This document shows, in pieces, positions 4,183 to 61,076 of a stretch of DNA of 64,000 nucleotides. Numbering within the stretch: position 1 is the first letter of the stretch; the number at the start of each line of letters is the position of its first letter. This DNA is from Gemmatimonadota bacterium (lineage in GTDB: Bacteria; Gemmatimonadota; Gemmatimonadetes; Gemmatimonadales; GWC2-71-9). Location of the stretch: the NCBI GenBank assembly GCA_039584325.1, contig JBDGYA010000004.1, positions 17,669 through 81,668 of the forward strand. The letters are read 5' to 3'. Below the pieces are notes generated by a model that saw only the letters and a program-made list of their open reading frames with translations, ran no database searches and was not told where the DNA came from. A program made the translations under genes and the position numbers.

Positions 4183-4220
4183 TTGGCAGATCCTCGGTCC
4201 ACCGACCGCCGAGGTGGCCT

Positions 4221-5148: not shown

Positions 5149-5174
5149 TCCGATACCATACACGGGAGACTTCA

Positions 5175-6044: not shown

Positions 6045-6051
6045 GGGTGAC

Positions 6052-6249: not shown

Positions 6250-6292
6250 CGTAGAGCAAAGCGCGATCGCTCGATCCTTCGATCCACCGATC

Positions 6293-6829
6293 CTACTTCA
6301 CCAGCGCTTCGATGTCCCCCACGGCCTGCTCGAGGATCTTGCGCACCTGTTTCTGTTTCGGCTCGTCTTCGCGGAGCTTCCACGTCGCGCGATACGCCTG
6401 TGTCACGAGACGTCCGACCAGTCGGGTCACCTCCGGCATCGGATCGCTCAACAGGCTATCGATCGTCTCCTCGACCCGGTCGAAGATGTCCTCGACCGTC
6501 GACTTGTGCTCGTCGAGGAACGCCTGGCCTGCGTCGGTGATGTGGTAGACCTTCTTGCCCTCCTGCTCCTCGCAGCGGACGAGCCCCTCATCCTCGAGCC
6601 ATTGGAGCGTGGGATACACGGTACCCGGAGACGGCTTGTAGCAGCCCTGGGTGTGCTCCTCCAGCGCCTTCATGACCTCGTAGCCGTGCATCGGCTTGTC
6701 ACGCAGGAGCTTCAGAATCACGTACTTCATGTCCCCAGGCTCGAACCAGACCCGTCGGCGACGCCCTCCTTCGCCCCGAAAACCCCAGAAGTTCGGGCCA
6801 AAGCCGAATTTCCATGCATTACCGCTCAT
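6293..6829 (-). CDS. PadR family transcriptional regulator
   Basis: The winged-helix core is DMKYVILKLLRDKPMHGYEVMKALEEHTQGCYKPSPGTVYPTLQWLEDEGLV. I chose the ATG at 6829 (MSGNAW...). The GTG at 6868 is an alternative. Confidence 0.85.
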   Translation of the reverse strand: MSGNAWKFGFGPNFWGFRGEGGRRRRVWFEPGDMKYVILKLLRDKPMHGYEVMKALEEHTQGCYKPSPGTVYPTLQWLEDEGLVRCEEQEGKKVYHITDAGQAFLDEHKSTVEDIFDRVEETIDSLLSDPMPEVTRLVGRLVTQAYRATWKLREDEPKQKQVRKILEQAVGDIEALVK

Positions 6830-6866
6830 TGCACACCTCTCGTCGAGACCTACCCGAAACATCGGC

Positions 6867-6899
6867 ACGTAACTTACGTTCCGTAATATCGCGCGATAT
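6867..6899. promoter_or_regulatory. two perfect palindromes upstream of padR (operator candidates)
   Basis: ACGTAA-C-TTACGT at 6867-6879 and ATATCGCGCGATAT at 6886-6899. Both lie in the divergent padR / M14 peptidase intergenic region. Confidence 0.4.
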
Positions 6900-7021
6900 G
6901 TCGTGGCGTCAACCCCTGGCTGGACTCGGGGCGGGTGTTGCGACTCGCGCGGGACCCTCCCGTCAGGTAGGTTTTGCCCCCGTCACCCTCAACCATCGGC
7001 CGTCTCCCAGGAATCGACCCC

Positions 7022-9760
7022 ATGCGCCAGTTGTGCACCCCGATTGCACTCTCCCTGCTCGCGTTGACGGCCAGCTCGGCCGCAGCGCAGGAAGCCTTCG
7101 ACTTCCATGGACGCGGCCCATTCCGGGACGCCGTCCCGCGCCCGGAGGCCCTGCTGGGGTACGGTCCCGGTGATCGTCACACGCAGTACGCCGAGCAGCA
7201 GGCCGTGTTGGACGCGATGGTGGCGGCGGCCGACGACCGGGTGCGAGTCGAGCAGATCGGCGTGACGGAAGAGGGACGTGCCATGCGCGCCTTGATCGTG
7301 TCCGCGCCCGAGAACATCGCACGGCTCGACGAGATCCGGCTCAGCCTCGCCCGGCTCGCCGACGCTAGTTCGACGAGCGCCGAGCAGGCCGTGGCCATCG
7401 CGTCCAGCACGCCGATCGCCGTCATGCTGACGTTTTCCATTCACGGAAACGAGCCCGCGGGATTCGAGGCGGCCATGTGGGTGGCCTACCAGCTCCTGGC
7501 CTCGGAGGAGCCCGCAACGGTCGAGATGTTGCGCAACGCGTTGGTGATCATCCTCCCCTCGGCCAATCCGGACGGTCACGAGCGCTTCGCTGTGTGGTAC
7601 AACTCCCTGGCCATCGGGACCGACGAGCCCTTTGCCTACGAGTGGAATGAACCCTGGGGCATTTGGGGTCGGTATGGTCACTACCGGTTCGACATGAACC
7701 GCGACTTCATCGCACTCTCCCAGGCGCCGACCCGCGCGATGCTTGGCGCACTGCTTCGCTGGCACCCCCAGGTGTACGTCGACCTGCACAGCACGACCGA
7801 GCAATACTTCTTTCCGCCGCCGGCGTCGCCCGTGAACCCCAACCTCCCCGCACACGCGACGACGTGGCTCGAGGTCTTTGGCCGCGGGAATGCCGCCGCG
7901 TTCGACCGATACGGGTGGCAGTACTACACGCGGGACGTATTCGATCTCTTCTACGCCGGCTATTTCGACACAGGCCCGTCCCTGTACGGCGCCACCGGAA
8001 TGACGTACGAGTCGGACGGCGGCAAGGCACTCCAGCGGAGGCGCGAGGACGGCACGGTCATCACCTTCGAGGAGGGTATCGCGCACCACTACGTGGCGGC
8101 GCTCGCGACTGTGGAAACAGCCGCCGCCAATCGGGAAGCGAGACTCCGCGACTACTACGAGTTCCACCGAACGGCCATCGAAGAAGCCCGCAGTAGCAGC
8201 ATGCGCCGCGTGATCGTCGATCCGCAGGCGGATCCGACCAACGCCGCCCGCCTGGTCGCGCTCCTGCTCCAGCACGATGTGCAGGTCTCCCGACTGACCG
8301 CTCCCTATGCGGCGTCCGCGCACGACTACCTGGCCGGCCCTGCAGCGCGGCCCGCCCGGCGGACGTTCCCGCCCGGGAGCTACGTCATCGATCTGGCTCA
8401 GCCCGAGGGGCGCATCGCCCTGGCACTGCTCGAGCCGCGCACCGAGATGGATCCCGAGTTCTACGAGCGGCAAGTGGAGAAATTCGAACGAAACCGGCGC
8501 CGTGGTCCTGCAGCCACCAGCGAGCGCTACGAGTTCTACGACCTGACTGCATGGTCATTGCCGCTCACGATGGGGCTGCAGGCGTACTGGACGGACGATG
8601 GCGGTGCGCTCGAGGCCGATGTGCTCGCGCTCCCCGACGAGGGCGACCCGGTGCGTGCGCTCGCTCCGACCGGCGGTTCGCCCGATCGTGCTCGGTCCGC
8701 GTACGTCTTCCCGAACGATCGGCAGGCCGCTGCCGAGTTGGCGTTCGCCTTGGCCGATGAGGACTTCACGGTCAGTGTGAGTACCGAGCCGCTGCGTGCC
8801 GATGGGGTGTCGTACCCACGCGGTACGTTCGTCGTCCGCGCGTCACGTAACCCGGCCACATTGCACGATCGCATGCCCGACCTCGCGGCCGAGATCGGCG
8901 CACCGGTCACGGCGGTGCAGTCGGCGTTCCCCGATTCCGGACAAGTCGGCATCGGATCGAACGCCGTGGACCCGGTCTTCCGCCCGCGTATTCTCGTCGC
9001 GGCGGGTGATGGGATCTCCATCACGAGTTACGGGGCCCTGTGGCACTTCCTCGAGCGGGAGCTGCGGTATTCGTTCGTTCCGGTGTCCCTGGAGTCGGTT
9101 GGGCGCATGCACACGCTTCCCGACTACAACGTGCTCATCGTCCCGAGTGGAAGCTCTTCGGCGATCCGACGCGCGCTGGGTGTGGGCGGTATTGAGCGTC
9201 TCAAACGGTGGGTGCGAGATGGCGGAGTGCTCATCGCCTACGACGACGCAGCGCTCTTTCCCGGACACGAGGACGTCGGTCTGAGCTCGGTCAAGGCGCT
9301 CGGCGAGGAGGAGGAGGAGGAGGAAAAGAAGGGTAGTACGCCGGACAGTCTCCCCTCGGCACCGGAGCTGACACCCCCGCTCGCATCACCCGAGGCCGAT
9401 CCTGACCGCCCGGAGTACGTGCCCGGATCCATCTTCCGAGCCACGCTCGACCTCACCCATTGGCTGACGATGGGCTACGGCGGGAAGACGCTCCCGGTCA
9501 TGCTGCGCGGCAGGACGATGCTGGCACCGTCGACGCGGGGAGACAATCCGGTCGTGTTCGTGGGTGACTCGCTGCTGCTCGCCGGTTTCGCCTGGCCGGA
9601 GAACACGGAGCAGTCGCTGCAGAAGACGGTGTGGGCAGCGGTCGAGCGGCAGGGCCGTGGGAATGTCGTGGTGTTCGCCGACGACCCGCTCTATCGCGCC
9701 TTCTGGCGTGGCCCGGCGCGTCTCCTCACCAACGCGATCCTCTTCGGGACGGGACGCTGA
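7022..9760 (+). CDS. M14 family zinc carboxypeptidase-like protein, large secreted form
   Basis: Signal peptide MRQLCTPIALSLLALTASSAAAQ. M14 motifs FSIHGNEPAG and NPDGHE, and a later HS..E region. Long C-terminal extension with a poly-Glu linker. The ATG at 7022 is preferred over the TTG at 6974. Confidence 0.8.
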   Translation: MRQLCTPIALSLLALTASSAAAQEAFDFHGRGPFRDAVPRPEALLGYGPGDRHTQYAEQQAVLDAMVAAADDRVRVEQIGVTEEGRAMRALIVSAPENIARLDEIRLSLARLADASSTSAEQAVAIASSTPIAVMLTFSIHGNEPAGFEAAMWVAYQLLASEEPATVEMLRNALVIILPSANPDGHERFAVWYNSLAIGTDEPFAYEWNEPWGIWGRYGHYRFDMNRDFIALSQAPTRAMLGALLRWHPQVYVDLHSTTEQYFFPPPASPVNPNLPAHATTWLEVFGRGNAAAFDRYGWQYYTRDVFDLFYAGYFDTGPSLYGATGMTYESDGGKALQRRREDGTVITFEEGIAHHYVAALATVETAAANREARLRDYYEFHRTAIEEARSSSMRRVIVDPQADPTNAARLVALLLQHDVQVSRLTAPYAASAHDYLAGPAARPARRTFPPGSYVIDLAQPEGRIALALLEPRTEMDPEFYERQVEKFERNRRRGPAATSERYEFYDLTAWSLPLTMGLQAYWTDDGGALEADVLALPDEGDPVRALAPTGGSPDRARSAYVFPNDRQAAAELAFALADEDFTVSVSTEPLRADGVSYPRGTFVVRASRNPATLHDRMPDLAAEIGAPVTAVQSAFPDSGQVGIGSNAVDPVFRPRILVAAGDGISITSYGALWHFLERELRYSFVPVSLESVGRMHTLPDYNVLIVPSGSSSAIRRALGVGGIERLKRWVRDGGVLIAYDDAALFPGHEDVGLSSVKALGEEEEEEEKKGSTPDSLPSAPELTPPLASPEADPDRPEYVPGSIFRATLDLTHWLTMGYGGKTLPVMLRGRTMLAPSTRGDNPVVFVGDSLLLAGFAWPENTEQSLQKTVWAAVERQGRGNVVVFADDPLYRAFWRGPARLLTNAILFGTGR
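9305..9322 (+). repeat. (GAG)6 trinucleotide run encoding a poly-Glu linker in the M14 protein
   Basis: Six consecutive GAG codons followed by GAA AAG AAG, giving the peptide EEEEEEEKK. Confidence 0.9.
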
Positions 9761-49051: not shown

Positions 49052-49606
49052 ATGAGAGTCAGCACCCACGGCAGCCGGACCGCACTTTGGCGCGCTCCGG
49101 CTCGGCATCCAGGTGCACCCTACCGGTACGGAGCAGCGGGCGTGGTGTTGCTTGGCGCGATCGCACTGACGAGTGCCTGTGGTTCGATCGGCGCCCGGCC
49201 CTACCTCGTGCCGCTCGCCGGAGCCGAGATCGACACCCTCAATGCCGAGCCGCACGTCGTGATCACCACGCTGCAGGACCTGGTCGTGGGTGAGGGACTC
49301 ACCGTCCGGGTGTCCAGCCCGCCGGAGGGCTATCTCGAGACTGACTGGTACGACACGGTCACGCAGACCCCTGGGGGCGGGTCGAGCCTCGACCCCCGAC
49401 GAGCGGTACGGCTGCGGTTCTTCGCCGACCGGCTCGGAGAGGACCGCACGAGACTGGCGTCGGAGGTCGTCATGCGCCGGGCCGTCGACCCGTCGCTGCC
49501 CGAGCGGGAAAACGAGATCATCGCACCGCCGGGGCATCCGGGAGCCGAGTTGCTCAACCGGATTCTGGCAGTGACGCGGGAGTCGCTGGGCTCCGGACCA
49601 ACGTGA
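49052..49606 (+). CDS. hypothetical lipoprotein
   Basis: Signal peptide with lipobox LTSAC. No family recognised. Its stop overlaps the next gene (GTGA). Confidence 0.5.
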   Translation: MRVSTHGSRTALWRAPARHPGAPYRYGAAGVVLLGAIALTSACGSIGARPYLVPLAGAEIDTLNAEPHVVITTLQDLVVGEGLTVRVSSPPEGYLETDWYDTVTQTPGGGSSLDPRRAVRLRFFADRLGEDRTRLASEVVMRRAVDPSLPERENEIIAPPGHPGAELLNRILAVTRESLGSGPT

Positions 49607-50820
49607 TTGACGCTACCTTCCCACCCGATTCGACACATCGCGTCCACGACAGGACGTGGGACGTCGTGGTCATCGGAGCCGGTCCGGCTGGTACCACGGT
49701 AGCGCGGATCCTCGCGGAGCGTGGGCACGCGACGCTCCTGCTCGACCGTCACCTGTTTCCGCGGGAGAAGGTCTGCGGCGACGCACTCATTCCCGATGCC
49801 GTCGACGCCCTCCGACGAGCGGGGCTGCTAGACACCGTCGAGGCCGAAGGGTATGGGAGCGATCGACTCTCGGTCTTCAGCCCCTCGGCGGTGCGTGTCG
49901 ATCTTTCCGGTCACTTCCTGACGCTGCGGCGCCGACGGCTCGACCATCTACTGCTGGAAGCCGCGCGTCGGCAGGGAGCCCGATTCCTCGCTGCGAAGGC
50001 GACAGCGATCACGTCGACCGCGCGGCAGGTCACAGTACGACTCGCAGGATGCGCTGATGCCGTCCGCGCCAGGTACGCCGTACTCGCGACCGGGACGGAC
50101 ACCAGACTTCGCGCGACCCCTCCCACTCCACCCGCGGCAAGCGCGGTTGCGTTACGCTGCTACGTCGCATCGCCGATCGAGATCCCTCAGCTGGTGATCT
50201 CCTTCGACCAGTCCGTGCTCCCCGGATACGCATGGGTGTTCCCGCTCGGTAAGGGCTGGTACAACATCGGTTGCGGTGTGTTTCGTCGCGACCGAAGGCA
50301 GGGCCAGCGTAACCTGCGGCAGGTCTTCCAGGCGTTCACTGCGGACTTCCCCATAGCGCGCAGCATCTGGGCGCGGCGCTCGGATGCGACACCGCTGGCA
50401 GGCGCGCGACTACTCTGTGGCCTCGAGCCGGGTGCGGCGTACGATGGCTGCCGGACTGTTGCCGTCGGTGAGACGATCGCTGCGACGTTCCCGTTCACCG
50501 GCGAAGGGATCGGGAAGGCGATGCAGACCGGTGAGCTCGCCGCGGAGGCCATCGATACTGCCCTCGAGTCCGACGATTCCGCGTCCCTCGCCAGCTACCC
50601 ATCGCTGCTCGAGCGCCGGCTGGAACCACGGTACACCGGCTACCGGGTGGCCGAGCGGTGGGTCCAATGGCCTCGCGTTACCGATTTCGTGGCCCGTCGC
50701 GTCGCGCGCAGCGAGCGCCTGCGTCATGCCGCCGCCGGTGTCCTGAGTGAGACCGCAGACCCACGCCAGGTCTTTTCTGCGCGCGCACTGGTCCCCGCCC
50801 TGCTGCCCTGGCGTTCCTGA
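49603..50820 (+). CDS. geranylgeranyl reductase family FAD-dependent oxidoreductase
   Basis: FAD fingerprint WDVVVIGAGPAGTTVARILAERGHATLLLDR followed by REKVCGDALIP, typical of the family. Confidence 0.8.
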   Translation: MIDATFPPDSTHRVHDRTWDVVVIGAGPAGTTVARILAERGHATLLLDRHLFPREKVCGDALIPDAVDALRRAGLLDTVEAEGYGSDRLSVFSPSAVRVDLSGHFLTLRRRRLDHLLLEAARRQGARFLAAKATAITSTARQVTVRLAGCADAVRARYAVLATGTDTRLRATPPTPPAASAVALRCYVASPIEIPQLVISFDQSVLPGYAWVFPLGKGWYNIGCGVFRRDRRQGQRNLRQVFQAFTADFPIARSIWARRSDATPLAGARLLCGLEPGAAYDGCRTVAVGETIAATFPFTGEGIGKAMQTGELAAEAIDTALESDDSASLASYPSLLERRLEPRYTGYRVAERWVQWPRVTDFVARRVARSERLRHAAAGVLSETADPRQVFSARALVPALLPWRS

Positions 50821-50829
50821 CAGAACCGC

Positions 50830-51900
50830 ATGTCGCGCACCATGACGACCGCCGCACAGTCGCCCGCCGACGACCGCGCGTTCTGCCATGCGATGCTGCC
50901 CAAGGTGTCCCGCACCTTTGCCATCTGCATTCGCCTGCTGCCCCCGGACCTGGAGCATCCGGTGCTCGTGGCCTACCTCCTGTGTCGTGTCGCCGACACC
51001 ATCGAGGACTCCACCGCCCTCTCGGCCGGGGACAAGGACCGTCTGCTACGGGCATTCGGCACTTCCCTCGACGATGACGGACCGGACGACAGCGGTCTCC
51101 GTGAGGTGTTTGCGTCGGCTGCCACGGATGAGGAGCTTCTCGCACGGAACGCGGAGGCGGTCATACGGGAGTTCCGCCGCTTCGTTCCGGCACAGCGCGC
51201 CGCGATCGCGCCCTGGGTCCAGGAGATGGCTGTGGGGATGGCCGAGTTCGCGGGGAAGAAGCGTGACGGGACGACATCACACATCGAGGCCCTCGCCACC
51301 GTCGAGGAGCTCGACCGCTACTGCTATTACGTGGCCGGGACGGTCGGGCACCTCCTCACGGAGCTGTTTCACCTCCACGCCGGCACGCGGCACCGAGCGC
51401 GGTACCGCACGCTGAAACGGCTCGCCACCAGCTTCGGCCTCGGACTGCAGCTGACGAACATCGTCAAGGACGTGGCGGACGACCGGCGCCGCGGTTGGAG
51501 CTTCGTTCCGCAGGAGCTCTGCCAGCTCGCAGGCATCACCCCGGACGAACTGCACGACGGCCGTCACGGCACAGCGGCACGCCAGGTGATGGTGGCGCTG
51601 ATCGCAAAGGCCAAGAGGCATCTCCTCGATGCGCTGGAGTACACGACGACGCTGCCCCGGCGGGAGTACGGTATCCGACTGTTCTGCCTCACCGCGCTCT
51701 ACTTCGCGGTGCAGACCCTCGAGCTGGCGGAGCGCGACGATCGGCTGCTGGATCCCGAACACAAGGTCAAGATCAGCCGTGCCGACGTTCTGCGCACAAT
51801 CGCCATGGCACGCCTCGTCGCCCCGAGCAACACGCTGGTCCGGTACTACTTCCGCCGCCTGGCCCGTGGTACCTGGGCAGCGGACGACTCCAGCGTCTGA
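50830..51900 (+). CDS. squalene synthase-type farnesyl-diphosphate farnesyltransferase (squalene/phytoene synthase family)
   Basis: KVSRTFAICIRLLPPDLEHPVLVAYLLCRVADTIEDS (a DTxED-type first Asp-rich motif as in eukaryote-like SQS), YCYYVAGTVGHLLTELF, and LQLTNIVKDVADD. Confidence 0.8.
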   Translation: MSRTMTTAAQSPADDRAFCHAMLPKVSRTFAICIRLLPPDLEHPVLVAYLLCRVADTIEDSTALSAGDKDRLLRAFGTSLDDDGPDDSGLREVFASAATDEELLARNAEAVIREFRRFVPAQRAAIAPWVQEMAVGMAEFAGKKRDGTTSHIEALATVEELDRYCYYVAGTVGHLLTELFHLHAGTRHRARYRTLKRLATSFGLGLQLTNIVKDVADDRRRGWSFVPQELCQLAGITPDELHDGRHGTAARQVMVALIAKAKRHLLDALEYTTTLPRREYGIRLFCLTALYFAVQTLELAERDDRLLDPEHKVKISRADVLRTIAMARLVAPSNTLVRYYFRRLARGTWAADDSSV

Positions 51901-51901
51901 A

Positions 51902-53524
51902 ATGGTCCCTCTGCAAACACCACCCGGGTTCTCGGGCCGGTTCGTCACCGACCACCGGACCCGGTGCGCGTACGCCGAAGCCGCCGGGCCGTATCGCATC
52001 GTGCCGGCGGCCGTGGCGCTCCCACGCGACGCCGACGACGTGACAAGGCTGGTGCACGCCGCGGCGGAGAGCGGCTGGACACTGACCCCGCGAGCGGCGG
52101 GCAGTGGCATGCCGGGAGGCAACGTCGGCCCCGGCGTGATCGTGGACCTTCAGGGATTGCGTCACCCATTGACAGTCCATTCGGACGACCGGCGTGCCGT
52201 GGCCGGTGCCGCCATCACCTGGCGGCAACTCGATCAGGCTGCCGGAGCCGTCGGGCTGCGACTCCCACCAGATCCATCGAGCGGTGCGTTCTGCACAGTG
52301 GGGGGCATGGTGGCAACGAATGCGGCAGGATCGCGGTCGGTGCTGCACGGTCCCATGCGACCGTGGGTGGCATCGCTCGACCTGGTCACCGGTCGGGGGG
52401 AATCCATTCGGCTGACGCGGGCCGCACCACCATCGGGAGGCATGCAGGAGGGACTCAGCACGATCGATCGGGAGATCCGTACCGGCGCGGAGGTCATCCC
52501 GGCCCGCTTCCCTCGCACTCGGAAGAACTCCTCGGGGTACGCGCTGGACGTCTACCTTCGCTCCGGCGACGTGATCGATCTGGTTATCGGCTCCGAAGGT
52601 ACGCTCGGCATCATTACCGAGGTCGGTCTGCGCCTCGCACCGCGCCCGTCTGCGGTGGCCGGTCTGCTCGTGGTCCTGCCCGAGGTCGCAGCCCTCAGTG
52701 CGGCAATCAGCATCCTGCTGCCGTTCGCACCGGCGGCACTCGAGCTGCTCGACCGCTCCTTCCTGCGAATCGCCGAGTACGATCGCGATCTCCCCATCGA
52801 GGACTCTGCCGCGGTCCTGCTGGTCGATTTTGAGGGGACGGCGGCGGAGGTCGAGGACACGGTACGCTCAGCGAGCGACGCCGTTGGCCGGACTGCAATG
52901 CATACCCGGACGGCACTGGACGAGGAGGAGTACTCGGAGTTGTGGGCCGTGCGCCACGCCGCCAGTCCCGTACTCGCCCGGCTGCCGAATACCCGCCGCT
53001 CGCTGCAGGTCATCGAGGATGGATGCGTTCCGATCGACCGGTTGAGCGACTATCTGGCAGGCGTGCACCGTGTGGCTGCCGACGTCGGTGTTGAGATCGT
53101 CGCCTTCGGGCACGCTGGAGACGGACACCTGCACGTCAACGCGCTTGCCGACACGACCGACCGCTACTTTGAGGCGACGCTCGAGGAGCTGCTCGAGCGA
53201 ACGACGGATCTGGTGCTCGAGCTTGGCGGCACGCCGAGCGGCGAGCACGGTGACGGTCGGCTGCGGACCCGGGCCGTGGCCCGTCTTTACGGACCGGAGC
53301 TGCTCGCGCTCTTCCGGCAGGTCAAGACCGCGTTCGATCCGTCCGAGGTGCTCAACCCGGGCGTCATCGTCCCCGCGGGGGATCCTCCGCTGGACCAGCT
53401 CAAGGTGGGCAGACGGGCCGTGGCCATCCCGGACGACATCGCCCTTGCCCTGCGGCGCGTGGAGCAAGCGGGAGACTGGGGCCTTTCGCGATTGGAGTTG
53501 CCCGATGACCCCTGGCCTCGCTAA
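51902..53524 (+). CDS. FAD-binding oxidoreductase (FAD-linked oxidase, GlcD / vanillyl-alcohol-oxidase fold)
   Basis: FAD-binding PCMH region VALPRDADDVTRLVHAAAESGWTLTPRAAGSGMPGGNVG and C-terminal GTPSGEHGDGRLR. The start was trimmed from ORF 51629.. and lies 1 nt after the SQS stop. Confidence 0.8.
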   Translation: MVPLQTPPGFSGRFVTDHRTRCAYAEAAGPYRIVPAAVALPRDADDVTRLVHAAAESGWTLTPRAAGSGMPGGNVGPGVIVDLQGLRHPLTVHSDDRRAVAGAAITWRQLDQAAGAVGLRLPPDPSSGAFCTVGGMVATNAAGSRSVLHGPMRPWVASLDLVTGRGESIRLTRAAPPSGGMQEGLSTIDREIRTGAEVIPARFPRTRKNSSGYALDVYLRSGDVIDLVIGSEGTLGIITEVGLRLAPRPSAVAGLLVVLPEVAALSAAISILLPFAPAALELLDRSFLRIAEYDRDLPIEDSAAVLLVDFEGTAAEVEDTVRSASDAVGRTAMHTRTALDEEEYSELWAVRHAASPVLARLPNTRRSLQVIEDGCVPIDRLSDYLAGVHRVAADVGVEIVAFGHAGDGHLHVNALADTTDRYFEATLEELLERTTDLVLELGGTPSGEHGDGRLRTRAVARLYGPELLALFRQVKTAFDPSEVLNPGVIVPAGDPPLDQLKVGRRAVAIPDDIALALRRVEQAGDWGLSRLELPDDPWPR

Positions 53525-53601: not shown

Positions 53602-54396
53602 ATGCGACCATATCTCGACCTCCTACAACACATCCTGGATCACGGTCACGCGAAGGAGGATCGCACGGGCACGGGCACCTCCAGCATATTTGGCCATCAG
53701 ATGCGGTTCGACCTGGCGGACGGCTTCCCCCTCGTCACGACGAAGAAGGTCCATCTCAAGTCGATCATCCACGAGCTGCTCTGGTTCATCCAAGGCGACA
53801 CCAACGTCCGATACCTCCAGGAGCACGGGGTCCGCATCTGGGACGAGTGGGCCGATGACCGCGGGGACCTCGGTCCCATCTACGGCGCACAGTGGCGCTC
53901 GTGGCCCGCACCCGATGGCGGCACGATCGATCAGCTGACCCGGGTCGTCGAGCAGATCCGCACGGACCCCGACTCACGACGCCACGTCGTGAGTGCGTGG
54001 AACCCTGCCGCCTTACCGGCCATGGCGCTACCACCATGCCACATCCTCTTTCAGTTCTACGTGGCGGACGGACGGCTGTCGTGCCAACTGTACCAGCGCA
54101 GCGCGGACGTCTTCCTCGGCGTTCCATTCAACATTGCCTCGTACTCGTTGCTCACGATGATGGTCGCCCAGGTCACGGATCTGGCGCCGGGGGACTTCGT
54201 GCACACGTTCGGGGACGTCCATCTGTACCGGAACCACCTCGACCAGGCGCGTCTCCAGCTGTCGCGGGCGCCGCGGGCACTCCCGACGATGTACCTCAAC
54301 CCCGCCGTCCAGTCGGTCTTCGACTTCACCTACGACGACTTCCGGCTGGAGGGGTACGACCCATATCCGCGAATCGCCGCCGAGGTGGCGGTATGA
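53602..54396 (+). CDS. thyA: thymidylate synthase (ThyA type)
   Basis: 264 aa. [27 protein letters not shown], the catalytic LPPCH, and DVHLYRNH. Confidence 0.97.
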
Positions 54397-54899
54397 TCGT
54401 CTCGCTCATCGCCGCGATGAGCGAGAATCGTGTGATCGGGCGCGACGGCGACCTGCCCTGGCGCCTGCCGCGCGACATGCACCGCTTCAAGACACTGACG
54501 ACAGGTCATCCGGTCATCATGGGCCGGAAGACGTTCGAGACCCTCACCAAGCCGCTGCCGAACCGGCACAACATCGTTGTCACCGCCAACCGCTCGTACG
54601 TCGCCGTGGGGGCGGACGTCACCCACTCCCTCGACGCGGCGCTCGCCCTGGTCGAGGACGACGCGGAAGTCTTCATCGCTGGCGGCGGTGAGATTTACCG
54701 ACTGGCTCTGCCGATCGCCGATCGCATCTATCTCACGGTCGTGCACGGCACGTTCGAGGGGAATGCGCGCTTCCCGGAGTTCTCGATGGAGGCGTGGCGC
54801 CTCGCCGAAGACATTCGCTACGAGTCGGACCAGCGTCACGCGTATCCCTTCAGCTTTCGCCTCTACCTCCGACGCACAAGCGAGCCCGAGAAGCGCTGA
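54393..54899 (+). CDS. folA: dihydrofolate reductase
   Basis: [53 protein letters not shown] overlap with thyA. Confidence 0.93.
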
Positions 54900-54981
54900 C
54901 TGGTCCGTCGAAGCGCGTGCCGATCGTGTGGTGACGCGGGTCAAGTCGCGCGCCCGCAACGCGATCCGCTCAAAAAACCTA

Positions 54982-55042
54982 TTGCGTATCTCACCATCAT
55001 TTCGTATCGTGTTGCGCAACACAAACTCCAAACGGAGTTCAC
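54982..55042 (+). promoter_or_regulatory. AT-rich leader of the ATP-grasp/GNAT/KamA operon: promoter-like hexamers, 14-bp perfect palindrome and an SD-sequestering hairpin
   Basis: TTGCGT (54982-87)-N17-TATCGT (55005-10). The perfect palindrome GTGTTGCGCAACAC at 55009-55022 overlaps the -10. The hairpin AACTCC-aaac-GGAGTT at 55024-55039 contains the only GGAG, 5 nt before the TTG start. Confidence 0.35.
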
Positions 55043-56122
55043 TTGCGCATAGGGCTCGCTTTCAACCAGCGACCGGACGATGCCGTCGTCGATAGCGAGG
55101 GCGATCGTCGCACCACCTTCGAACCAGTCACCGATGCCTTCGTCGAATGGGATGACGCGGAAACCATCGCGGCAGTTCGTGATGCGCTCAGCTCCTTCGG
55201 CGAGGTCGTCCTGCTCGAGGCGGTCGACGATTTTCCGAAGCGGCTTGGCAGCGCCCGGGTGGACCTCCTCTTCAACATGGCCGAGGGGCTGCACGGCCCG
55301 AACCGCGAAGCACACGTGCCGGCCATCGCGGAGTTCCTCGGCGTCCCCTACCTCGGCAGCGACCCGCTGACCCTCGCGCTGTCGCTGCACAAGGTCCGCG
55401 CCAAGGAGGTGTTCCGTCAGCGCGGCGTCCCGACGGCGCCGTTCTCCTGGATCGAGACCCTCGACGACCTGCCGATGCTCGCGAACGGGCAGCGCTATCC
55501 CGTATTCCTGAAGCCGGTCTGGGAGGGCTCGTCCAAGGGTGTCGCCGAAGCGAACTACGTCGAGGGTCCCCGGCAGGCACAGGACCGGACCCGGCATCTG
55601 CTCGCCACCTACGACCAGCCGGTCCTCGTCGAGGCATTCCTACCAGGCGACGAGTTCACGGTCGCGATTCTCGGCAACGGGCAAGACGCGCGGGCGCTGC
55701 CCCTGATCCGGTATCGCTTCGAGGGTCTGCCGGCCGACGCCTTGCCGATCATCGGCTACGAGGCGAAGTGGACGTGGGACGTGCCCGACAACCCGCTCGA
55801 GATCCTGGAGTGCCCGGCGCAGATCGACGAGACGCTCGCGTCCCGCATCCGGGAAACTGCGCTCGGTGCGTACCACGCGCTGGGCTGCCGGGACTGGGCG
55901 CGCGTCGACGTCCGGCTCGATGCGGACAGAGTTCCGAACGCGCTCGAGGTCAATCCGCTGCCCGGCATCATCCCGGATCCGGTTGCCAATAGCTGCTTCC
56001 CGTGCGCGGCCCGTGCGGCCGGCATGTCATACGATGAGCTCATTCAGTCCGCCGTGCGTGTGGCGTGGCGGCGGATCACCGGGCACGACCTGTTGCCCGC
56101 CACCGAAGGAGTCGCGAACTGA
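55043..56122 (+). CDS. D-alanine--D-alanine ligase-like ATP-grasp enzyme (paralogue 1)
   Basis: 359 aa with a TTG start. RIGLAFN..., DLLFNMAEG, PVFLKPVWEGSSKG, EAFLPGDEFTVAILG, IGYEAKW and ARVDVRLD...ALEVNPLPG show the ATP-grasp layout of the Ddl family. Confidence 0.8.
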   Translation: MRIGLAFNQRPDDAVVDSEGDRRTTFEPVTDAFVEWDDAETIAAVRDALSSFGEVVLLEAVDDFPKRLGSARVDLLFNMAEGLHGPNREAHVPAIAEFLGVPYLGSDPLTLALSLHKVRAKEVFRQRGVPTAPFSWIETLDDLPMLANGQRYPVFLKPVWEGSSKGVAEANYVEGPRQAQDRTRHLLATYDQPVLVEAFLPGDEFTVAILGNGQDARALPLIRYRFEGLPADALPIIGYEAKWTWDVPDNPLEILECPAQIDETLASRIRETALGAYHALGCRDWARVDVRLDADRVPNALEVNPLPGIIPDPVANSCFPCAARAAGMSYDELIQSAVRVAWRRITGHDLLPATEGVAN

Positions 56123-57114
56123 AGATCGCGGTCATCTACGACAGCGGCGCCGAGAGCTGGACGCCGGAGGATATCCAGGCCGTGCTGGAGTCCGTGGAGG
56201 GCGTGTGCCGCGTGCTGACATCCGCCGGACACGAGGTCGGCCGTGTTCCGGTGCATGACGATCTGGCGTGGTTCGAAACGGTGCGGGCGGCCGACCTGGT
56301 CTTCAATCTCTGCGAGGGAGTGGGGGGCGTGAGCCGCCTGGAGTATCCCGTCGCCTCCGCCATCGAGCTGATGGGCACTCCGTGCACCGGGACCTCATCC
56401 TGGACGATGACGATCTGTCACCGGAAGCCTGTGCTCAACGCGGTCCTGCAATCGCGCGGGCTTCCGGTACCCGGCTGGACCGTACCGACCGAGCGCGGCG
56501 ATCTGCCAGCCGCGCTGCTTCCGGCCATCGTGAAGCCGGCGGCCGAAGATGCCAGCATCGGGATTGAGCAGGCCTCCGTCGTCGCGACGCTCGACGCACT
56601 GCACCGGCGCGTACACGAGATGGGCTCGCGGCATGGGCTCCTGATGGTCCAGCAGTACGTTCCGGGCCGGGAGTTCAACGTCGGGTTCGTCGGCGAGCAC
56701 GTGCTCCCGATCTCGGAGATCGACTTCTCGGAGATGCCGAGTGGTGCCTGGCCGATCGTGTCGTTCGCGGCGAAATGGCACTCCGACAGCCCGGAGTACA
56801 CTGGCACCCAACCGGTCTGTCCCGCTCCGATCGATCATGCCCTCCGTTCCCGTCTCGTGGATACCGCCGCCGCCGCGTGGCGAGCTGTCGAGGGACGGGG
56901 GTACGGACGAGTCGACCTGCGCGTCGACCGCGAGGGGCAGCCGTGGGTCCTCGAGGTCAATCCGAACCCCGACCTCTCCACGGATGCCGGACTTGCCAAC
57001 ATGGCGCTTGCGTACGGCTGGACTTACGACGACCTCGTCCTGCACATCGTCGAGGCGTCCCTTCCCGAGCGCTCGGCCCAGGCATCACCCCGTCGGGAGG
57101 CGTCGGTCGCGTGA
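56065..57114 (+). CDS. D-alanine--D-alanine ligase-like ATP-grasp enzyme (paralogue 2)
   Basis: KIAVIYD..., DLVFNLCEG, AIVKPAAEDASIG, QQYVPGREFNVGFVG, FAAKW and GRVDLRVD...VLEVNPNPD. The start is ambiguous: either the GTG at 56065 (58-nt overlap with the upstream gene) or the CTG at 56119, preceded by GAAGGAG with a 7-nt spacer. Confidence 0.8.
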   Translation: MAADHRARPVARHRRSRELKIAVIYDSGAESWTPEDIQAVLESVEGVCRVLTSAGHEVGRVPVHDDLAWFETVRAADLVFNLCEGVGGVSRLEYPVASAIELMGTPCTGTSSWTMTICHRKPVLNAVLQSRGLPVPGWTVPTERGDLPAALLPAIVKPAAEDASIGIEQASVVATLDALHRRVHEMGSRHGLLMVQQYVPGREFNVGFVGEHVLPISEIDFSEMPSGAWPIVSFAAKWHSDSPEYTGTQPVCPAPIDHALRSRLVDTAAAAWRAVEGRGYGRVDLRVDREGQPWVLEVNPNPDLSTDAGLANMALAYGWTYDDLVLHIVEASLPERSAQASPRREASVA

Positions 57115-57632
57115 GCGCCGCCGATGCGGTCGTGACGCTCGGGCCGCTTGCCGCGGTCGACCGGAACCGGGTCCGAGCCATGGTCACTGCGACCGGGGTG
57201 TTCCGTCCGGACGAAGTCGCGGTTGCGGTGGAGGTGTTCGACGACGCCACCACTCGCCCGGGGGCGGACTACTATGGCCTCGGAGCCTACGAGGCCGACC
57301 GGCTCATCGGGTTCACGCTCTACGGCAGGACACCCTGCACCGTGGCGACCTGGGATCTGTACTGGATCGTCGTCGATCCATCGGTACAGCGGGGCGGGGT
57401 CGGGCGACAGTTGATGGCTGCCACTGAGCAGGACATCGCCGACCACGCCGGTCGCCTCATCGTGGTCGAGACCTCCTCACGGGACGACTATGGTCCGACC
57501 AGAATGTTCTACGAGTCGCTTCGCTACGACCGGGCTGCGCGGATTCCCGAATACTACGGGCCCGGCGACGACCTGATCGTCTACACCAAGCTCCTTGATC
57601 CTCCCGAGACAGCGGCGAGGCACCATGGCTGA
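57111..57632 (+). CDS. GNAT family N-acetyltransferase
   Basis: 173 aa. The acetyl-CoA loop is IVVDPSVQRGGVGRQLM. The GTG start overlaps the upstream stop (GTGA). Confidence 0.8.
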   Translation: MSAADAVVTLGPLAAVDRNRVRAMVTATGVFRPDEVAVAVEVFDDATTRPGADYYGLGAYEADRLIGFTLYGRTPCTVATWDLYWIVVDPSVQRGGVGRQLMAATEQDIADHAGRLIVVETSSRDDYGPTRMFYESLRYDRAARIPEYYGPGDDLIVYTKLLDPPETAARHHG

Positions 57633-58812
57633 GTGGCAGAAACTCCTCCACGACCGAAGCGTGCGGACGCTCCAGCAACTGGTGGATAAGTTCGGGGCCG
57701 AGCAGTTCCCCGATCTCGACCGGTTGCAGGAGGCCGTCGACAACTTCGAGTTCCGGATCTCGCCGGCGATGGTCGACCTGATCCAGGAACCGGGCGATCC
57801 GATCTGGCGGCAGTACGTCCCGGATCTCCAAGAGCTGGAAGTGGTCGACGGCATTCTCGACAGCCTGGACGAGGAGGGGGACAGCCCGGTCCCGAACATC
57901 ACGCACCGCTATCCCGACCGTGCCTTGTTCCTGGTGAGTGCGGTCTGCGCGGCGTACTGCCGGTTCTGCACGCGGCGGCGCAAGGTCGGGGATCCCGAGA
58001 AGATCCCCATGGCCCAGCTGGAGAGCGGATTCCGGTATCTCGAGGAACACCCGGAGATAAGGGACGTCATTCTCTCGGGGGGCGATCCGCTGTTGCTCTC
58101 CGACCGGCGGCTCAACGCCATTCTCTCTCGCTTGCGCAAGATCCCCCATCTGGAGGTCATCCGGATCGGGTCGCGCGTGCCGTGCCATTTGCCGGAGCGG
58201 ATCACGCCGGAACTGTGCAACGTGTTGCGCAAGCATCACCCGCTGTACATCAATACCCACTTCAACCACCCAGCTGAGCTGACGCCAGCGGCGGTGAGGG
58301 GACTCGGCATGCTGGCCGATGCCGGCGTACCGCTCGGATGCCAGACAGTCCTGCTCAAGGACGTGAACGACGATGTCACCGTCATGAAGGATCTCATGAA
58401 GGGGCTGCTCCGGGCCCGGGTGCGCCCCTACTACATCTTCATGTGCGACAATGTCGCGGGTGTCGAGCACTTCAAGGCCACCGTCCAGAAGGGACTCGAG
58501 ATCATCCGTGGCCTCAGAGGCTGGACGAGCGGACTCGCCGTTCCGCACTTCGTCATCGATGCCCCTGGTGGCGGCGGCAAGATCCCGCTGCTTCCCGAGT
58601 ACCTCGAAGAGATCACCGAATCCGAAGTCGTGCTGCGGAACTACGAGGGAGATCGGTACACCTATCCGCAGCCGCGGAAGGAGGTCCTCGTGGCAGCCGG
58701 CATCGCCGAGCCGGAATACGACCTCATCCCGGTCGCTGCGGGCAATGCGGCAGCATCGCGCGCGAAGTCCAAAAACGGAAACCGGAAGGCCCGGAAAGGC
58801 AAGCGGGCCTAG
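57625..58812 (+). CDS. lysine 2,3-aminomutase family (KamA/AblA-like) radical SAM protein
   Basis: 395 aa. Radical SAM cluster CAAYCRFCTRR. Also DVILSGGDPL, IRIGSR, YINTHFNHP, YYIFMCD and VPHFVIDAPGGGGKIP. 8-nt overlap with the GNAT gene. Confidence 0.9.
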   Translation: MAEWQKLLHDRSVRTLQQLVDKFGAEQFPDLDRLQEAVDNFEFRISPAMVDLIQEPGDPIWRQYVPDLQELEVVDGILDSLDEEGDSPVPNITHRYPDRALFLVSAVCAAYCRFCTRRRKVGDPEKIPMAQLESGFRYLEEHPEIRDVILSGGDPLLLSDRRLNAILSRLRKIPHLEVIRIGSRVPCHLPERITPELCNVLRKHHPLYINTHFNHPAELTPAAVRGLGMLADAGVPLGCQTVLLKDVNDDVTVMKDLMKGLLRARVRPYYIFMCDNVAGVEHFKATVQKGLEIIRGLRGWTSGLAVPHFVIDAPGGGGKIPLLPEYLEEITESEVVLRNYEGDRYTYPQPRKEVLVAAGIAEPEYDLIPVAAGNAAASRAKSKNGNRKARKGKRA

Positions 58813-58865
58813 GGGCGTCTCCACGCCCCCGGCCCACCATACCATCCGCCGGCCGCCGCGGCGGC
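58812..58865. terminator. two GC-rich hairpins between convergent kamA-like and EF-G genes
   Basis: GGGGCG-tctcca-CGCCCC at 58812-58829 and the palindrome GCCGCCGCGGCGGC at 58852-58865. There are no U-tracts. Confidence 0.4.
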
Positions 58866-58866: not shown

Positions 58867-60966
58867 TTACCTGGCGTTCTCTTCCTCCAGCTCCTTTGCC
58901 CGCTGCTCGCGGACCTTCTCCGCGGCGTCGGGCGGAACTTCCTGGTAGCTCGAAAACGACCACCGGAAGCTTCCGCGACCGTGGGTCATCGAGTGCAGGT
59001 GCGTGGCGTACCGGTACATCTCGGCTTCCGGTACATACGCCTTCACTTTCGTGAGTCGCCCACCTGCCTCGCTCCCGAGGATCTGTCCGCGCCGCGAGGA
59101 GAGATCGCCCATCACCTCGCCGAGATTCTCATCCGGCGTCCAGACTTCGATGTCGAGAATCGGCTCGAGCAGGATCGGCTTGGCTTTCGGGGCCACGTTC
59201 CGGAAGGCGAGGATGCCCGCCATCTTGAACGACTGCTCCGAGCTGTCAACGTCGTGGTACGAACCGTCGTAGCACTCGACCTTGAAGTCCACGACCGGGT
59301 ATCCCGCGGTCACGCCGCGTGCGGCGGCCTCCCGCACCCCCTTGTCCACCGCTGGGACGTACTTGCTGGGGATCACGCCGCCCTTGATCTGGTCCGCGAA
59401 CACGTATCCCTCGCCCCGCGGCAGCGGCGAGATCCGGATCCAGCAGTCACCGAACTGTCCCCGGCCCCCAGTCTGTTTCTTGTGGCGTCCCTGACCATCA
59501 CCCTTGCCCTTGAACGTCTCCCGGTACGCGACCTTGGGTTGCCCCAGCTCCGCGTGAACACCGAACTTCCGTTCGAGCCGACCGACGACGATCTCCAGGT
59601 GCCGCTCGCCGCGGCCCCCGATCAGTGTCTGCCTCAGCTCCGCGTTGTATTCGTGCTGGAAGGTCGGATCCTCTTCGTGCAGCTTGTGCAACCCCGTGGA
59701 GAGCTTTTCCTCCTCGCCCCGCTGTTTGACCTCGACCGACAACACGGTGAGCGGCTCCGGGAACGGGATCTTCGGCAGCACGACCGCCAGCCTCGATGTG
59801 GACAGCGTGTCATTCGTGTGCGTGTCCTTCAGCTTGGCCACTACCCCGATGTCGCCGACGTGGAGCCTCGGCACCTCGGTGCGGTCCTTCCCCTGAGCGA
59901 TCGAGAGATGATTGAGCTTCTCGCTCGCGTTGCGGGGGGCGTTGTACACGTCCGCACCGTTGCTGAGACTGCCGGAGTAGATCCGGAAGAACGTCACGTC
60001 GCCGACGTGTGGTTCGGACACCGTCTTGAAAACTTGCACTACCACCGGGTCCCCCTCGCCCGGCGTCAGCTCCACCGGCTCCGCCGAACCCCATTTCTCC
60101 GCGGCTGCCGGGGGGCGTTCCGTCGGTGCGGGGACCAACTCGGTCAATTTCGAGAGGAGTGCACGCGTGCCGTAGGTCAGCGTCGCCGATCCGCAGAGCA
60201 GCGGGCAGATGTCGCCTGATGCCACGCCCTGCTTCATCGCCTCGATGGCTTCCTCCCGCGTGATTTCCTCGCCACCGAGATACCGCTCGAGCAGGACATC
60301 GTTCGTCGTCGCGATCGTCTCCACTAGTTCCTGGGAGTATTGCTCGAACCGCGTCTGGTACTCGTCCGGGATGTCGACTTCGTCGTACTCCCCCGTCTTC
60401 GTGCCCTTCTTGAACAGGTGGCACTTCCGAGAAAAGAGATTGATGATTCCGTGGAAGTCCGGTCCCTCGCCCACCGGGATTTCGATCGGCACGACCTTCG
60501 GGGTCAGGTGCTCCTTGATGTCGGCAAACACCTTCTCGAAATCGGCGTTGTCCTTGTCCAGTTGGGACAGGAAGAAGAGCCGGGGAATGCCGCGGTCCGT
60601 GGCGTATTCCCAAGCCTTCTCGGTCCCGACCTCCACGCCGGATGTGGCACTCACCACGATGAGCGCGGCGTCCGCCGCGGAGATCCCCGCCAGGGCATCG
60701 CCGACGAAGTCGAGGTATCCGGGAGTGTCGATCAGGTTGATCTTGACGCCGTTCCACTCGGCATAGGCGAGGGCGAGGTTGATGGAGTACTGCCGTTCGA
60801 TCTCGTCGGGGGTGTAGTCGGTGAGGGCGGTTCCCTGCTGTACGGATCCATGTCGGGTACTGCTGCCGGCCACGAACGCAAGAGCGTCGACCAATGTCGT
60901 CTTTCCGCTTGCGCCGTGGCCGACGACCGCCACGTTCCGGATCTTATCTCCTGTATAGACCTTCAC
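58867..60966 (-). CDS. elongation factor G paralogue (EF-G2-like translational GTPase)
   Basis: The GTG at 60966 is preceded by AGGAGG with a 7-nt spacer. G1 VVGHGASGKTT and G3 DTPGYLDF. G4 reads SQLD instead of NKxD. EF-G domains II-V follow (e.g. HKKQTGGRGQFG). Confidence 0.9.
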   Translation of the reverse strand: MKVYTGDKIRNVAVVGHGASGKTTLVDALAFVAGSSTRHGSVQQGTALTDYTPDEIERQYSINLALAYAEWNGVKINLIDTPGYLDFVGDALAGISAADAALIVVSATSGVEVGTEKAWEYATDRGIPRLFFLSQLDKDNADFEKVFADIKEHLTPKVVPIEIPVGEGPDFHGIINLFSRKCHLFKKGTKTGEYDEVDIPDEYQTRFEQYSQELVETIATTNDVLLERYLGGEEITREEAIEAMKQGVASGDICPLLCGSATLTYGTRALLSKLTELVPAPTERPPAAAEKWGSAEPVELTPGEGDPVVVQVFKTVSEPHVGDVTFFRIYSGSLSNGADVYNAPRNASEKLNHLSIAQGKDRTEVPRLHVGDIGVVAKLKDTHTNDTLSTSRLAVVLPKIPFPEPLTVLSVEVKQRGEEEKLSTGLHKLHEEDPTFQHEYNAELRQTLIGGRGERHLEIVVGRLERKFGVHAELGQPKVAYRETFKGKGDGQGRHKKQTGGRGQFGDCWIRISPLPRGEGYVFADQIKGGVIPSKYVPAVDKGVREAAARGVTAGYPVVDFKVECYDGSYHDVDSSEQSFKMAGILAFRNVAPKAKPILLEPILDIEVWTPDENLGEVMGDLSSRRGQILGSEAGGRLTKVKAYVPEAEMYRYATHLHSMTHGRGSFRWSFSSYQEVPPDAAEKVREQRAKELEEENAR

Positions 60967-61076
60967 GGTCACACCTCCTCGTACGGGGACCCGGAACATG
61001 CGCCGAGGGGAGGTGACGCCGCAAGGGTACGCGCACGGCCTCGCCCATCCCGGGTCCGAGCCGCTAGTTTGCGACC

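Follow-up and report, generated by a model that had tools for sequence, protein, structure and literature searches.

Related Systems and Composition of the Operon

Among the described systems closest to the operon considered here is the AblA/AblB pair of methanogens, known in Bacillus as yodP-kamA, in which a lysine-type aminomutase and an acetyltransferase of the GNAT family are encoded in one operon. The present operon lies in a 64,000-nucleotide stretch of a Gemmatimonadota contig (JBDGYA010000004.1), called the window below, and encodes two ATP-grasp ligases (AG1 and AG2), a GNAT acetyltransferase and a KamA-family aminomutase. A second point of comparison is the EpmA/EpmB system, where an ATP-dependent ligase uses beta-lysine made by a KamA-family enzyme. 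The D-alanine–D-alanine ligases (Ddl), together with VanA, share the three-domain ATP-grasp fold. The Ngg/AsnO pathway, which leads to N-acetylglutaminylglutamine amide (NAGGN), is generally known to make an N-acetylated dipeptide compatible solute in the cytoplasm with a GNAT and an ATP-grasp enzyme, and with no nonribosomal peptide synthetase (NRPS). This likeness is one of logic only: the NAGGN pathway uses other building blocks, has no aminomutase and relies on one ligase rather than two. Finally, glutathionylspermidine/trypanothione synthetase and carnosine synthase are ATP-grasp enzymes acting on polyamines or beta-amino acids, which matches the homospermidine and beta-lysine supply genes observed beside AG1–AG2, but a PDB search detected no specific sequence relationship between these enzymes and the two ligases.

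The components of the operon belong to known enzyme superfamilies, and the module that they form represents an uncharacterised, widespread pathway. The reading that we favour, with a little more belief than doubt, is that the operon provides an ATP-dependent cytoplasmic pathway to an acetylated beta-lysine pseudo-di- or tripeptide or conjugate. A beta-lysine amide pathway using two ligases had been put forward in the original prediction, made from the DNA of this locus, and is now supported, at the level of sequence, by the aminomutase scores, the ligase pockets, the conservation of the module and its gene fusions. The prediction knew of no product assigned to the four-gene architecture, and none was found in the full-text literature. 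No description of the architecture itself was found there either (subscription-only papers being outside this coverage), nor any searchable full-text paper pairing a lysine 2,3-aminomutase with a D-alanine ligase. Two leads were discarded: a paper on Pelobacter describes a plain ablA/ablB pair only (PMC3543383), and another paper deals with unrelated fusions (PMC11237513). Public annotation names the products 'D-alanine--D-alanine ligase (family)', 'ATP-grasp domain-containing protein' and 'KamA family radical SAM protein'.

The four genes occupy 3.8 kb of the forward strand (55043-58812), with overlapping or abutting ends:

55043..56122, + strand: AG1, predicted ATP-grasp amide ligase with the Ddl fold, of a distinct non-Ddl family; TTG start, GGAG 5-9 nt upstream
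56119..57114, + strand: AG2, predicted ATP-grasp ligase with the Ddl fold, paralogous to AG1; CTG start at a conserved position
57111..57632, + strand: GNAT acetyltransferase of the 2R7H family, not AblB-type; GTGA start/stop overlap with AG2
57625..58812, + strand: KamA-family radical S-adenosylmethionine (SAM)/pyridoxal phosphate (PLP) enzyme, predicted lysine 2,3-aminomutase; ATG start, 8-nt overlap with the GNAT stop, motif CAAYCRFC

Coordinates, both overlaps and the CAAYCRFC motif are all as first described for these four coupled same-strand genes. Overlaps of 4 or 8 nt, with a single gap upstream of all four, speak for one operon. Pfam places Dala_Dala_lig_C in both ligases, GNAT domains in the third protein and Radical_SAM and LAM_C in the fourth.

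The Aminomutase

The window KamA passes the generic KamA-family model TIGR00238 (283 bits, cutoff 199.2). Among the more specific models, AblA (TIGR03820) is the best-scoring one, at 437.8 bits for a cutoff of 525.4. Glutamate 2,3-aminomutase (TIGR04368, 387.9 bits, cutoff 650), arginine 2,3-aminomutase (TIGR04468, 317.8 bits, cutoff 600) and EpmB (TIGR03821, 224.1 bits, cutoff 369.3) follow, all three also below their cutoffs. The same ranking is found for full-length module KamAs of Nitrospirota, Omnitrophota, Ignavibacteriota, Acidobacteriota and Desulfuromonadales, which score 444-499 bits against AblA, and is unchanged for a truncated KamA from Kryptonia. The enzymes of this module thus differ from AblA proper in staying below its cutoff in the six phyla tested (438-499 versus 525 bits). 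From their sequences, they form a coherent sister clade of AblA/KamA and not of EpmB. Whether the aminomutase would fall in the EpmB clade had been raised as a decisive point by the original prediction, and the scores against EpmB and AblA, together with the two retained aspartates described below, place it outside.

Over 321 residues, the protein is 51% identical to the lysine 2,3-aminomutase (LAM) of Clostridium subterminale (2A5H). C108, C112 and C115 of the window protein correspond to C125, C129 and C132 of the CxxxCxxC [4Fe-4S] motif of LAM, and the PLP-binding K337 is kept. In the alignment of 69 module KamAs, C125, C129, C132, R134, D293, D330 and K337 (C. subterminale numbering) are invariant in all 69; KamA has neither C268, the Zn ligand of the clostridial enzyme, nor its C-terminal cysteines. 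Asp293 and Asp330 of LAM bind the epsilon-ammonium group of lysine, and Arg134 binds its carboxylate. Both aspartates are reportedly replaced in glutamate 2,3-aminomutases (Ruzicka and Frey). Since the lysine-binding D293 and D330 are invariant, there is strong support for a lysine-type aminomutase, predicted to convert L-lysine into beta-lysine (3,6-diaminohexanoate).

The C-terminus of the window KamA (58750-58809) is a tail rich in lysine and arginine (...SRAKSKNGNRKARKGKRA). Similar tails, with 8-14 such residues in the last 40, are seen in the stand-alone module KamAs of Gemmatimonadota and Ignavibacteriota. Their position is that of the Zn-binding C-terminal domain in clostridial LAM, and of AG1 in the fused versions described below.

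Two Ligases with Remodelled Pockets

AG1 and AG2 both match the Pfam domain Dala_Dala_lig_C (PF07478), with 112.6 and 88.6 bits, respectively. Their best NCBIfam Ddl model gives 157.7 bits for AG1 and 128.9 for AG2, far from the cutoff of 243, and neither is thus assigned to the functional Ddl enzymes. The two proteins are 31% identical and each is orthologous across phyla, which indicates two old, distinct enzymes rather than a recent duplication. Sequence matches in the PDB are mainly Ddl and VanA (E = 1e-29 for AG1, 1e-22 for AG2); AG2 also has one weak match to an L-amino acid ligase, its other significant matches being Ddl/VanA. A comparison of structure models, suggested at the outset, was run for AG1. 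The AlphaFold2 model (predicted local distance difference test 85.8, predicted template-modelling score (pTM) 0.87) recovered only Ddl or VanA among its top 50 Foldseek matches in the PDB, at 21-28% identity and template-modelling scores of 0.7-0.8.

The active site of Escherichia coli DdlB (checked against 2DLN, and used for numbering) was mapped onto 86 AG1 and 74 AG2 orthologues. The ATP, Mg and catalytic residues K97, K144, E187, K215, R255, D257, E270 and N272 are invariant in both families, and E180 is kept or is Gln in many AG2, including that of the window. Taken with PF07478 in both proteins and the AG1 model, these residues place the pair in the ATP-grasp superfamily, with a Ddl-like fold. 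Because the catalytic residues are invariant, both should be active ligases, and an acyl-phosphate mechanism is expected from the conserved fold and residues. The substrate side is another matter. The positions that define a functional Ddl are the E15/S150/Y216 triad and H63 for the first D-alanine, and S281/L282 for the second one. The observed residues are as follows:

H63: E in AG1 (86/86); variable in AG2
E68: R in AG1 (86/86); variable in AG2
S150: retained in AG1; A in AG2
Y216: W in AG1 (77/86); W in AG2 (74/74)
G276: retained in AG1; D in AG2 (72/74)
S281: retained in AG1; A in AG2
L282: C in AG1; G in AG2

The N-terminal GGxSxEREVS motif of Ddl is also replaced in both ligases, in AG1 by an invariant E-W/F-D...T motif followed by FNxAEG..G..RE. 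By this residue mapping, both substrate pockets are remodelled, each in its own way. The module ligases differ further from Ddl and VanA in never being found in a cell-wall context and in always being paired. That AG1 and AG2 are active amide ligases of the ATP-grasp type, with a reaction other than D-Ala-D-Ala ligation, is, judged from scores and pocket residues, strongly supported. The possibility that they were ordinary cell-wall enzymes, which the first analysis had kept in view, has thus lost its ground.

The Acetyltransferase

The third protein matches the Pfam families Acetyltransf_7, _1 and _10. Its best NCBIfam match is RimI, at 34.8 bits for a cutoff of 86.4. No match to AblB (TIGR03827) was obtained, either for the window GNAT at E <= 0.01 or for two orthologues at E <= 1e-5. 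The parallel with AblA/AblB drawn in the original prediction therefore holds for the association of an aminomutase with a GNAT, but not for homology: the module GNAT is unrelated to AblB at the family level, and the comparison is an analogy only.

A much closer relative is the PDB entry 2R7H, which matches the window GNAT at the level of an orthologue (E = 1e-28). As 2R7H matches all 76 module GNATs, the best ones at 39-49% identity and in several phyla, it belongs to the same subfamily as the operon acetyltransferase. This structural-genomics entry, which we take to come from a Desulfovibrio, is titled 'putative D-alanine N-acetyltransferase of GNAT family', a name that appears to derive from neighbouring 'Ddl' annotations. 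A literature search found no functional work on it. The next-best relatives, which are weak, are the tabtoxin resistance protein and AAC(6'), acetyltransferases of small-molecule amines.

Conservation and Gene Fusions

An AG1-family profile built from seven sequences, scanned against one genome per species, detected AG1-family genes in at least 584 species-level genomes. Among the best 80 loci of these genomes, 62 carry AG1, AG2, GNAT and KamA in this order and seven are truncated; six Gemmatimonadota loci have no adjacent KamA, three have no detectable GNAT and two show other arrangements. The full module is thus present in 62 of the 73 untruncated loci, and 34 further metagenome loci have the canonical arrangement. 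At least five named phyla are represented, with carriers among Gemmatimonadota, Ignavibacteriota/Melioribacter, Kryptonia, Acidobacteriota and Desulfuromonadales, as well as among unclassified bacteria. The flanks differ from phylum to phylum, with recG and NAD kinase in Ignavibacteria, and thyA-folA and an elongation factor G (EF-G) paralogue in the window. In the flanks of the loci examined, no transporter, regulator, carrier protein or small precursor gene is conserved beside the module.

The gene fusions point in the same direction. An AG1 sequence search returned 886 clusters at 50% identity (E < 1e-30), many of them 600-790 residues long and matching the query in two stretches; according to Pfam, these long proteins are tandem ligase fusions or KamA–ligase fusions. 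KamA–AG1 fusions occur in proteins P0139, P0189 and P0267 and at loci L004, L005 and L007, and they are accompanied by AG2 and GNAT in Candidatus Magnetoovum and in an Omnitrophota metagenome-assembled genome (MAG), or by a second AG1-like protein (AG1') and AG2 in a deltaproteobacterium. True AG1–AG2 fusions are represented by P0129 and P0134, and a Myxococcota locus (L093) has the order KamA, AG1–AG2 fusion, GNAT. A triple fusion of an S51 peptidase, AG1 and KamA was found on a metagenome contig (P0279). Archaea are represented by two MAGs, one of Nitrososphaerales with an AG1 homologue and one labelled 'archaeon' with a KamA–ligase fusion. Altogether the fusion variants reach Nitrospirota, Omnitrophota, Myxococcota and Archaea.

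The same order in 62 of 73 genome loci and in 34 metagenome loci makes the arrangement far beyond chance. Conserved in distant taxa, with different flanks and with fusions between its components, the module is strongly supported as one functional unit of four genes; the conservation of the neighbourhood in relatives, on which the original prediction had staked its reading, is thus established well beyond the home phylum. These data bear directly on the most ordinary explanation, that of an AblA/AblB pair making N-epsilon-acetyl-beta-lysine which stands by chance beside two cell-wall Ddl genes. The public names, 'D-alanine--D-alanine ligase (family)' and 'lysine 2,3-aminomutase', would suggest it, and KamA and GNAT are indeed the two activities of the Abl pathway. 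However, the KamA–AG1 and AG1–AG2 fusions and the co-conservation across phyla speak for one pathway, to which the module contributes two obligatory ATP-grasp partners that AblA/AblB does not have. The ligases also fall far below every Ddl cutoff, with remodelled D-Ala pockets, and the GNAT has no AblB match. We regard this explanation as scarcely credible.

The pattern of conservation also bears on a secreted beta-lysine peptide antibiotic, with the GNAT as self-resistance enzyme. It is generally known that beta-lysine is a constituent of streptothricin-class and tuberactinomycin antibiotics, that GNATs detoxify them by acetylating it, and that ATP-grasp ligases build several peptide antibiotics. 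Nevertheless, the module holds a syntenic position in the core genome, with KamA 75-92% identical across Gemmatimonadales. It is vertically conserved over whole orders rather than patchily distributed, and is accompanied by no conserved exporter, regulator or resistance transporter. An antibiotic is therefore very unlikely.

One further locus is to be read with caution. L045 (JBLMWC010000013.1), labelled Bacillota, has a KamA 74% identical to that of the window and Gemmatimonadota-type neighbours; mis-binning or a wrong label is the probable cause.

A Polyamine Variant of the Ligase Core

At two loci, in a Thermodesulfobacteriota MAG (L061) and a deltaproteobacterial MAG (L071), AG1–AG2 follows three genes with 4-nt overlaps, and neither KamA nor GNAT is present. 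The upstream trio encodes a deoxyhypusine-synthase homologue, an arginase-family protein and a pyruvoyl arginine decarboxylase (PvlADC). Such a trio of SpeY, arginine decarboxylase (ADC) and ureohydrolase constitutes the agmatine-dependent route to homospermidine, and SpeY homologues have been shown experimentally to be homospermidine synthases (J Biol Chem 2026, PMC13625781). A metagenome scan seeded with AG1 of L061 returned at least 22 loci of the type (SpeY)-SpeB-PvlADC-AG1-AG2 with 4-nt overlaps, L096 and L101 among them (the span in L061 being 2837-7449). It also returned four hybrids in which SpeY and/or PvlADC stands with AG1-AG2-GNAT and no KamA (L117, L120, L131 and L132), as well as four loci with KamA-AG1 only. 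A class-I SAM methyltransferase gene follows the ligase genes in the three polyamine-variant loci examined for it (L071, L096 and L120), and GT4 glycosyltransferase genes lie downstream in L061 and L096. This gene content suggests an acylated or methylated homospermidine derivative, undescribed so far, as the product of the variant.

From these arrangements, the invariant core looks like AG1 plus AG2, with KamA on the one hand, and ADC, SpeY and ureohydrolase on the other hand, as interchangeable amine-supply cassettes. Beta-lysine, agmatine and homospermidine have in common an aliphatic chain with primary amines. Since AG1–AG2 is also paired with polyamine genes, beta-lysine may be an amine building block to the ligases, which are perhaps not specific for it.

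The presence of a deoxyhypusine-synthase homologue raises another possibility, namely that beta-lysine or a polyamine is ligated to a carboxylate or a lysine of a protein or of the cell envelope. This could be a modification of a ribosomal protein or of a factor akin to elongation factor P (EF-P), with EpmA/EpmB and hypusination as parallels, or the amidation of peptidoglycan stems. The paralogy of KamA with EpmB, RimI as the best (sub-cutoff) NCBIfam model of the GNAT and the action of Ddl relatives on cell-wall precursors would all fit, as would an EF-G paralogue encoded convergently to the module, which is seen in the window, at 15 Gemmatimonadota loci and at the unrelated locus L090. We nevertheless hold macromolecule modification to be quite unlikely. 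The SpeY homologues are homospermidine synthases and not protein modifiers (PMC13625781), and KamA, with 224 bits against EpmB for a cutoff of 369, is much nearer to AblA. An EF-G neighbour is missing in Ignavibacteriota, Kryptonia, Acidobacteriota and the other phyla, and no candidate target gene is conserved beside the module. No canonical ddl, efp or epmA was detected among the about 30 genes scanned in the 64-kb window, which agrees with the initial remark that neither efp nor an epmA-like gene is adjacent. The module thus departs from EpmA/EpmB in its aminomutase, in the absence of efp and epmA nearby and in its ligases, which are of the ATP-grasp type and do not resemble aminoacyl-tRNA synthetases.

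Peptidase-Linked Sister Architectures

In three of the six contexts examined, AG1-like tandem fusions are directly followed by a gene of the S58 family (DmpA/BapA beta-aminopeptidases). These S58-linked fusions lie on unrelated contigs, with spacings of 0-4 nt:

L088, 9001-10119: S58-linked tandem fusion
L089, 9001-10092: S58-linked tandem fusion
L090, 2144-3445: S58-linked tandem fusion

Both of their halves are AG1-like, which by sequence makes them a sister branch of the window module. S58 beta-aminopeptidases are reported to hydrolyse amide bonds of beta-amino acids (PMC9235088), and a tandem ligase with its S58 neighbour may form a synthesis/hydrolysis pair for a beta-peptide. The peptidase part of the triple fusion P0279 has cyanophycinase as its best NCBIfam match, at 34 bits and below cutoff.

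Such partners bring to mind a cyanophycin-like oligomer or polymer, in which AG1 and AG2 would be the two polymerase sites, one for the backbone and one for a cationic side group (beta-lysine or polyamine). The product would be a nitrogen-rich storage or protective polyamide, remobilised by dedicated peptidases. Two ligase activities are always present, as in CphA, and the module is core-genomic and has no exporter, two features compatible with such a polymer, along with the S51 triple fusion and the S58 genes themselves. On the other side, no peptidase is found in the window or in the 62 canonical loci, S51 is seen only in the rare triple fusion, and the S58-linked tandems belong to the sister branch. 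Pfam detects no Mur-ligase-type domain in any component, which sets the module apart from cyanophycin synthetase. All solved relatives of the ligases are single-turnover dipeptide ligases, and tailoring by GNAT and methyltransferase better fits a small molecule. A polymer is thus judged unlikely.

Proposed Pathway

The favoured pathway to an acetylated beta-lysine amide would comprise four steps. The first one, the conversion of L-lysine to beta-lysine by the radical SAM/PLP chemistry of KamA, is well supported. AG1 and AG2 would then each form one amide bond via an acyl-phosphate intermediate. AG1 probably acts directly on the KamA product, because it is fused to KamA in other phyla. Its first-substrate site, with invariant acidic residues, would suit a dicationic acyl donor, and the Ser responsible for holding the carboxylate of the incoming amino acid is kept. 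AG2 probably performs the second ligation, after AG1, as the AG1–AG2 fusions indicate. Its nucleophile site no longer has this carboxylate-binding Ser but contains a new Asp, and would suit a cationic amine with no adjacent carboxylate. In the last step, the GNAT would acetylate a remaining free amine. Beta-lysine would serve in this scheme as an aliphatic diamine building block, and the pathway would be self-contained and independent of both ribosome and NRPS. A small-molecule product is suggested by the GNAT and SAM methyltransferase tailoring, by the small-molecule relatives of the GNAT and by the lack of a conserved carrier, precursor peptide, exporter or regulator. In function, this product might resemble compatible solutes or modified polyamines.

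Several observations weigh against this scheme. The substrates of AG1, AG2 and the GNAT are assigned from residue patterns and fusion logic only, and the product is predicted from the genes. In the six Gemmatimonadota loci where AG1-AG2-GNAT has no adjacent KamA, the KamA position holds only unrelated genes, for example for an amidohydrolase or a TonB receptor, and the polyamine variant likewise has no KamA nearby. Unless KamA is encoded elsewhere in these genomes, the ligases may need no beta-lysine. The S51 and S58 partners of the sister architectures fit an oligomer or polymer as well, and the core-genome site among housekeeping genes is also compatible with a structural or macromolecule-modifying role. 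In the AlphaFold2 model of an AG1-like tandem fusion, the two halves are predicted with confidence, but with a pTM of 0.55 and no defined packing between them.

Start Sites, Transcription and Chromosomal Setting

The window is a stretch of core chromosome with 65-68% GC, and the nearest homologues of its KamA, annotated as Gemmatimonadales or Gemmatimonadota, assign it to this group. Upstream of the operon are thyA and folA, and downstream a convergent gene:

54900..55042, + strand: leader and probable promoter region, the 143-nt gap between folA and the operon, the only sizeable + strand intergenic gap here
58867-60978, minus strand: EF-G paralogue (NF009381, 867 bits), converging on the operon 54 nt downstream

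For AG2, the original prediction had left the choice between starts at 56065 and 56119. The second one is retained: 53 of 56 orthologues have ATG, GTG or TTG at the homologous position, which makes 56119 the conserved start position by alignment, the alternative GTG at 56065 being less likely. In the window this codon is CTG, overlapping the AG1 stop (CTGA) and preceded by GAAGGAG, and CTG is shared there only by three close relatives (L008, L009 and L012). Behind such a strong Shine-Dalgarno sequence, initiation may be non-canonical or coupled. For KamA, the start at 57625 is favoured over a TTG at 57595, because the closest homologue has 395 residues and is covered at 100%.

A promoter scan of the operon region found no sigma-70 consensus site, and no Rfam riboswitch or leader was found between 53000 and 61500 (E <= 1). 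A single terminator-like hairpin was detected in the region, on the minus strand and within the 3' end of kamA (58782-58794), 73 nt beyond the stop of the EF-G paralogue. It probably serves the EF-G gene, and the two convergent genes may share a terminator region. A minus-strand antisense open reading frame of 462 codons (57457-58845) is longer than the kamA gene it overlaps, a typical high-GC artefact.

The EF-G paralogue was considered as a functional partner of the module and rejected, its adjacency being limited to the 15 Gemmatimonadota loci and L090. In the latter, an EF-G-like gene (3453-5528), 35% identical, converges on the pair of tandem ligase and S58 peptidase. The adjacency is probably a coincidence.

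The remaining genes of the window are housekeeping genes, such as leuS, serA, gyrA and a dehydrogenase of the isocitrate/isopropylmalate type. Three consecutive genes upstream of thyA (49603-53524) encode a geranylgeranyl-reductase-like flavoprotein, a squalene/phytoene synthase and an FAD-linked oxidase, and may form a carotenoid or hopanoid-related cluster; the SQS_PSY gene holds the same position in relatives at 77% identity (L001-L003). At the position of thyA-folA in the window (53602-54899), some Gemmatimonadota differ: L014 (4970-5722) and L040 (7042-7794) have thyX (Pfam Thy1) directly upstream of the module, and L020 an unannotated open reading frame of the same size (6875-7627). This looks like an in-situ non-orthologous replacement of the type of thymidylate synthase.

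Biological Significance

A broader proposition, which we put forward tentatively and as less likely than the pathway itself, is that a widespread class of ATP-grasp pathways, so far unrecognised, has AG1–AG2 as its core and makes amino-acyl or peptidyl conjugates of aliphatic polyamines. Beta-lysine (from KamA) and homospermidine/agmatine (from ADC/SpeY) would be its interchangeable cationic scaffolds. If true, the window would make a new family of beta-lysine 'pseudo-polyamine' metabolites, or even a cyanophycin-like polyamide. Gemmatimonadota, Ignavibacteriota and further phyla that have been little studied would then have in this product one of their main cytoplasmic solutes or nitrogen stores.

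Two genes of the module are mislabelled in public annotation as cell-wall D-Ala-D-Ala ligases, and knowledge of the product would correct this systematic mis-annotation. It would also give a function to two large ATP-grasp families and to the GNAT family of the orphan structure 2R7H, reveal a new class of beta-amino-acid metabolites made without NRPS, and link beta-lysine to polyamine (homospermidine) metabolism via a shared ligase core. Gemmatimonadota are among the most abundant soil phyla, and to our knowledge almost nothing has been established about their small-molecule physiology; in this phylum, the operon belongs to the core genome.

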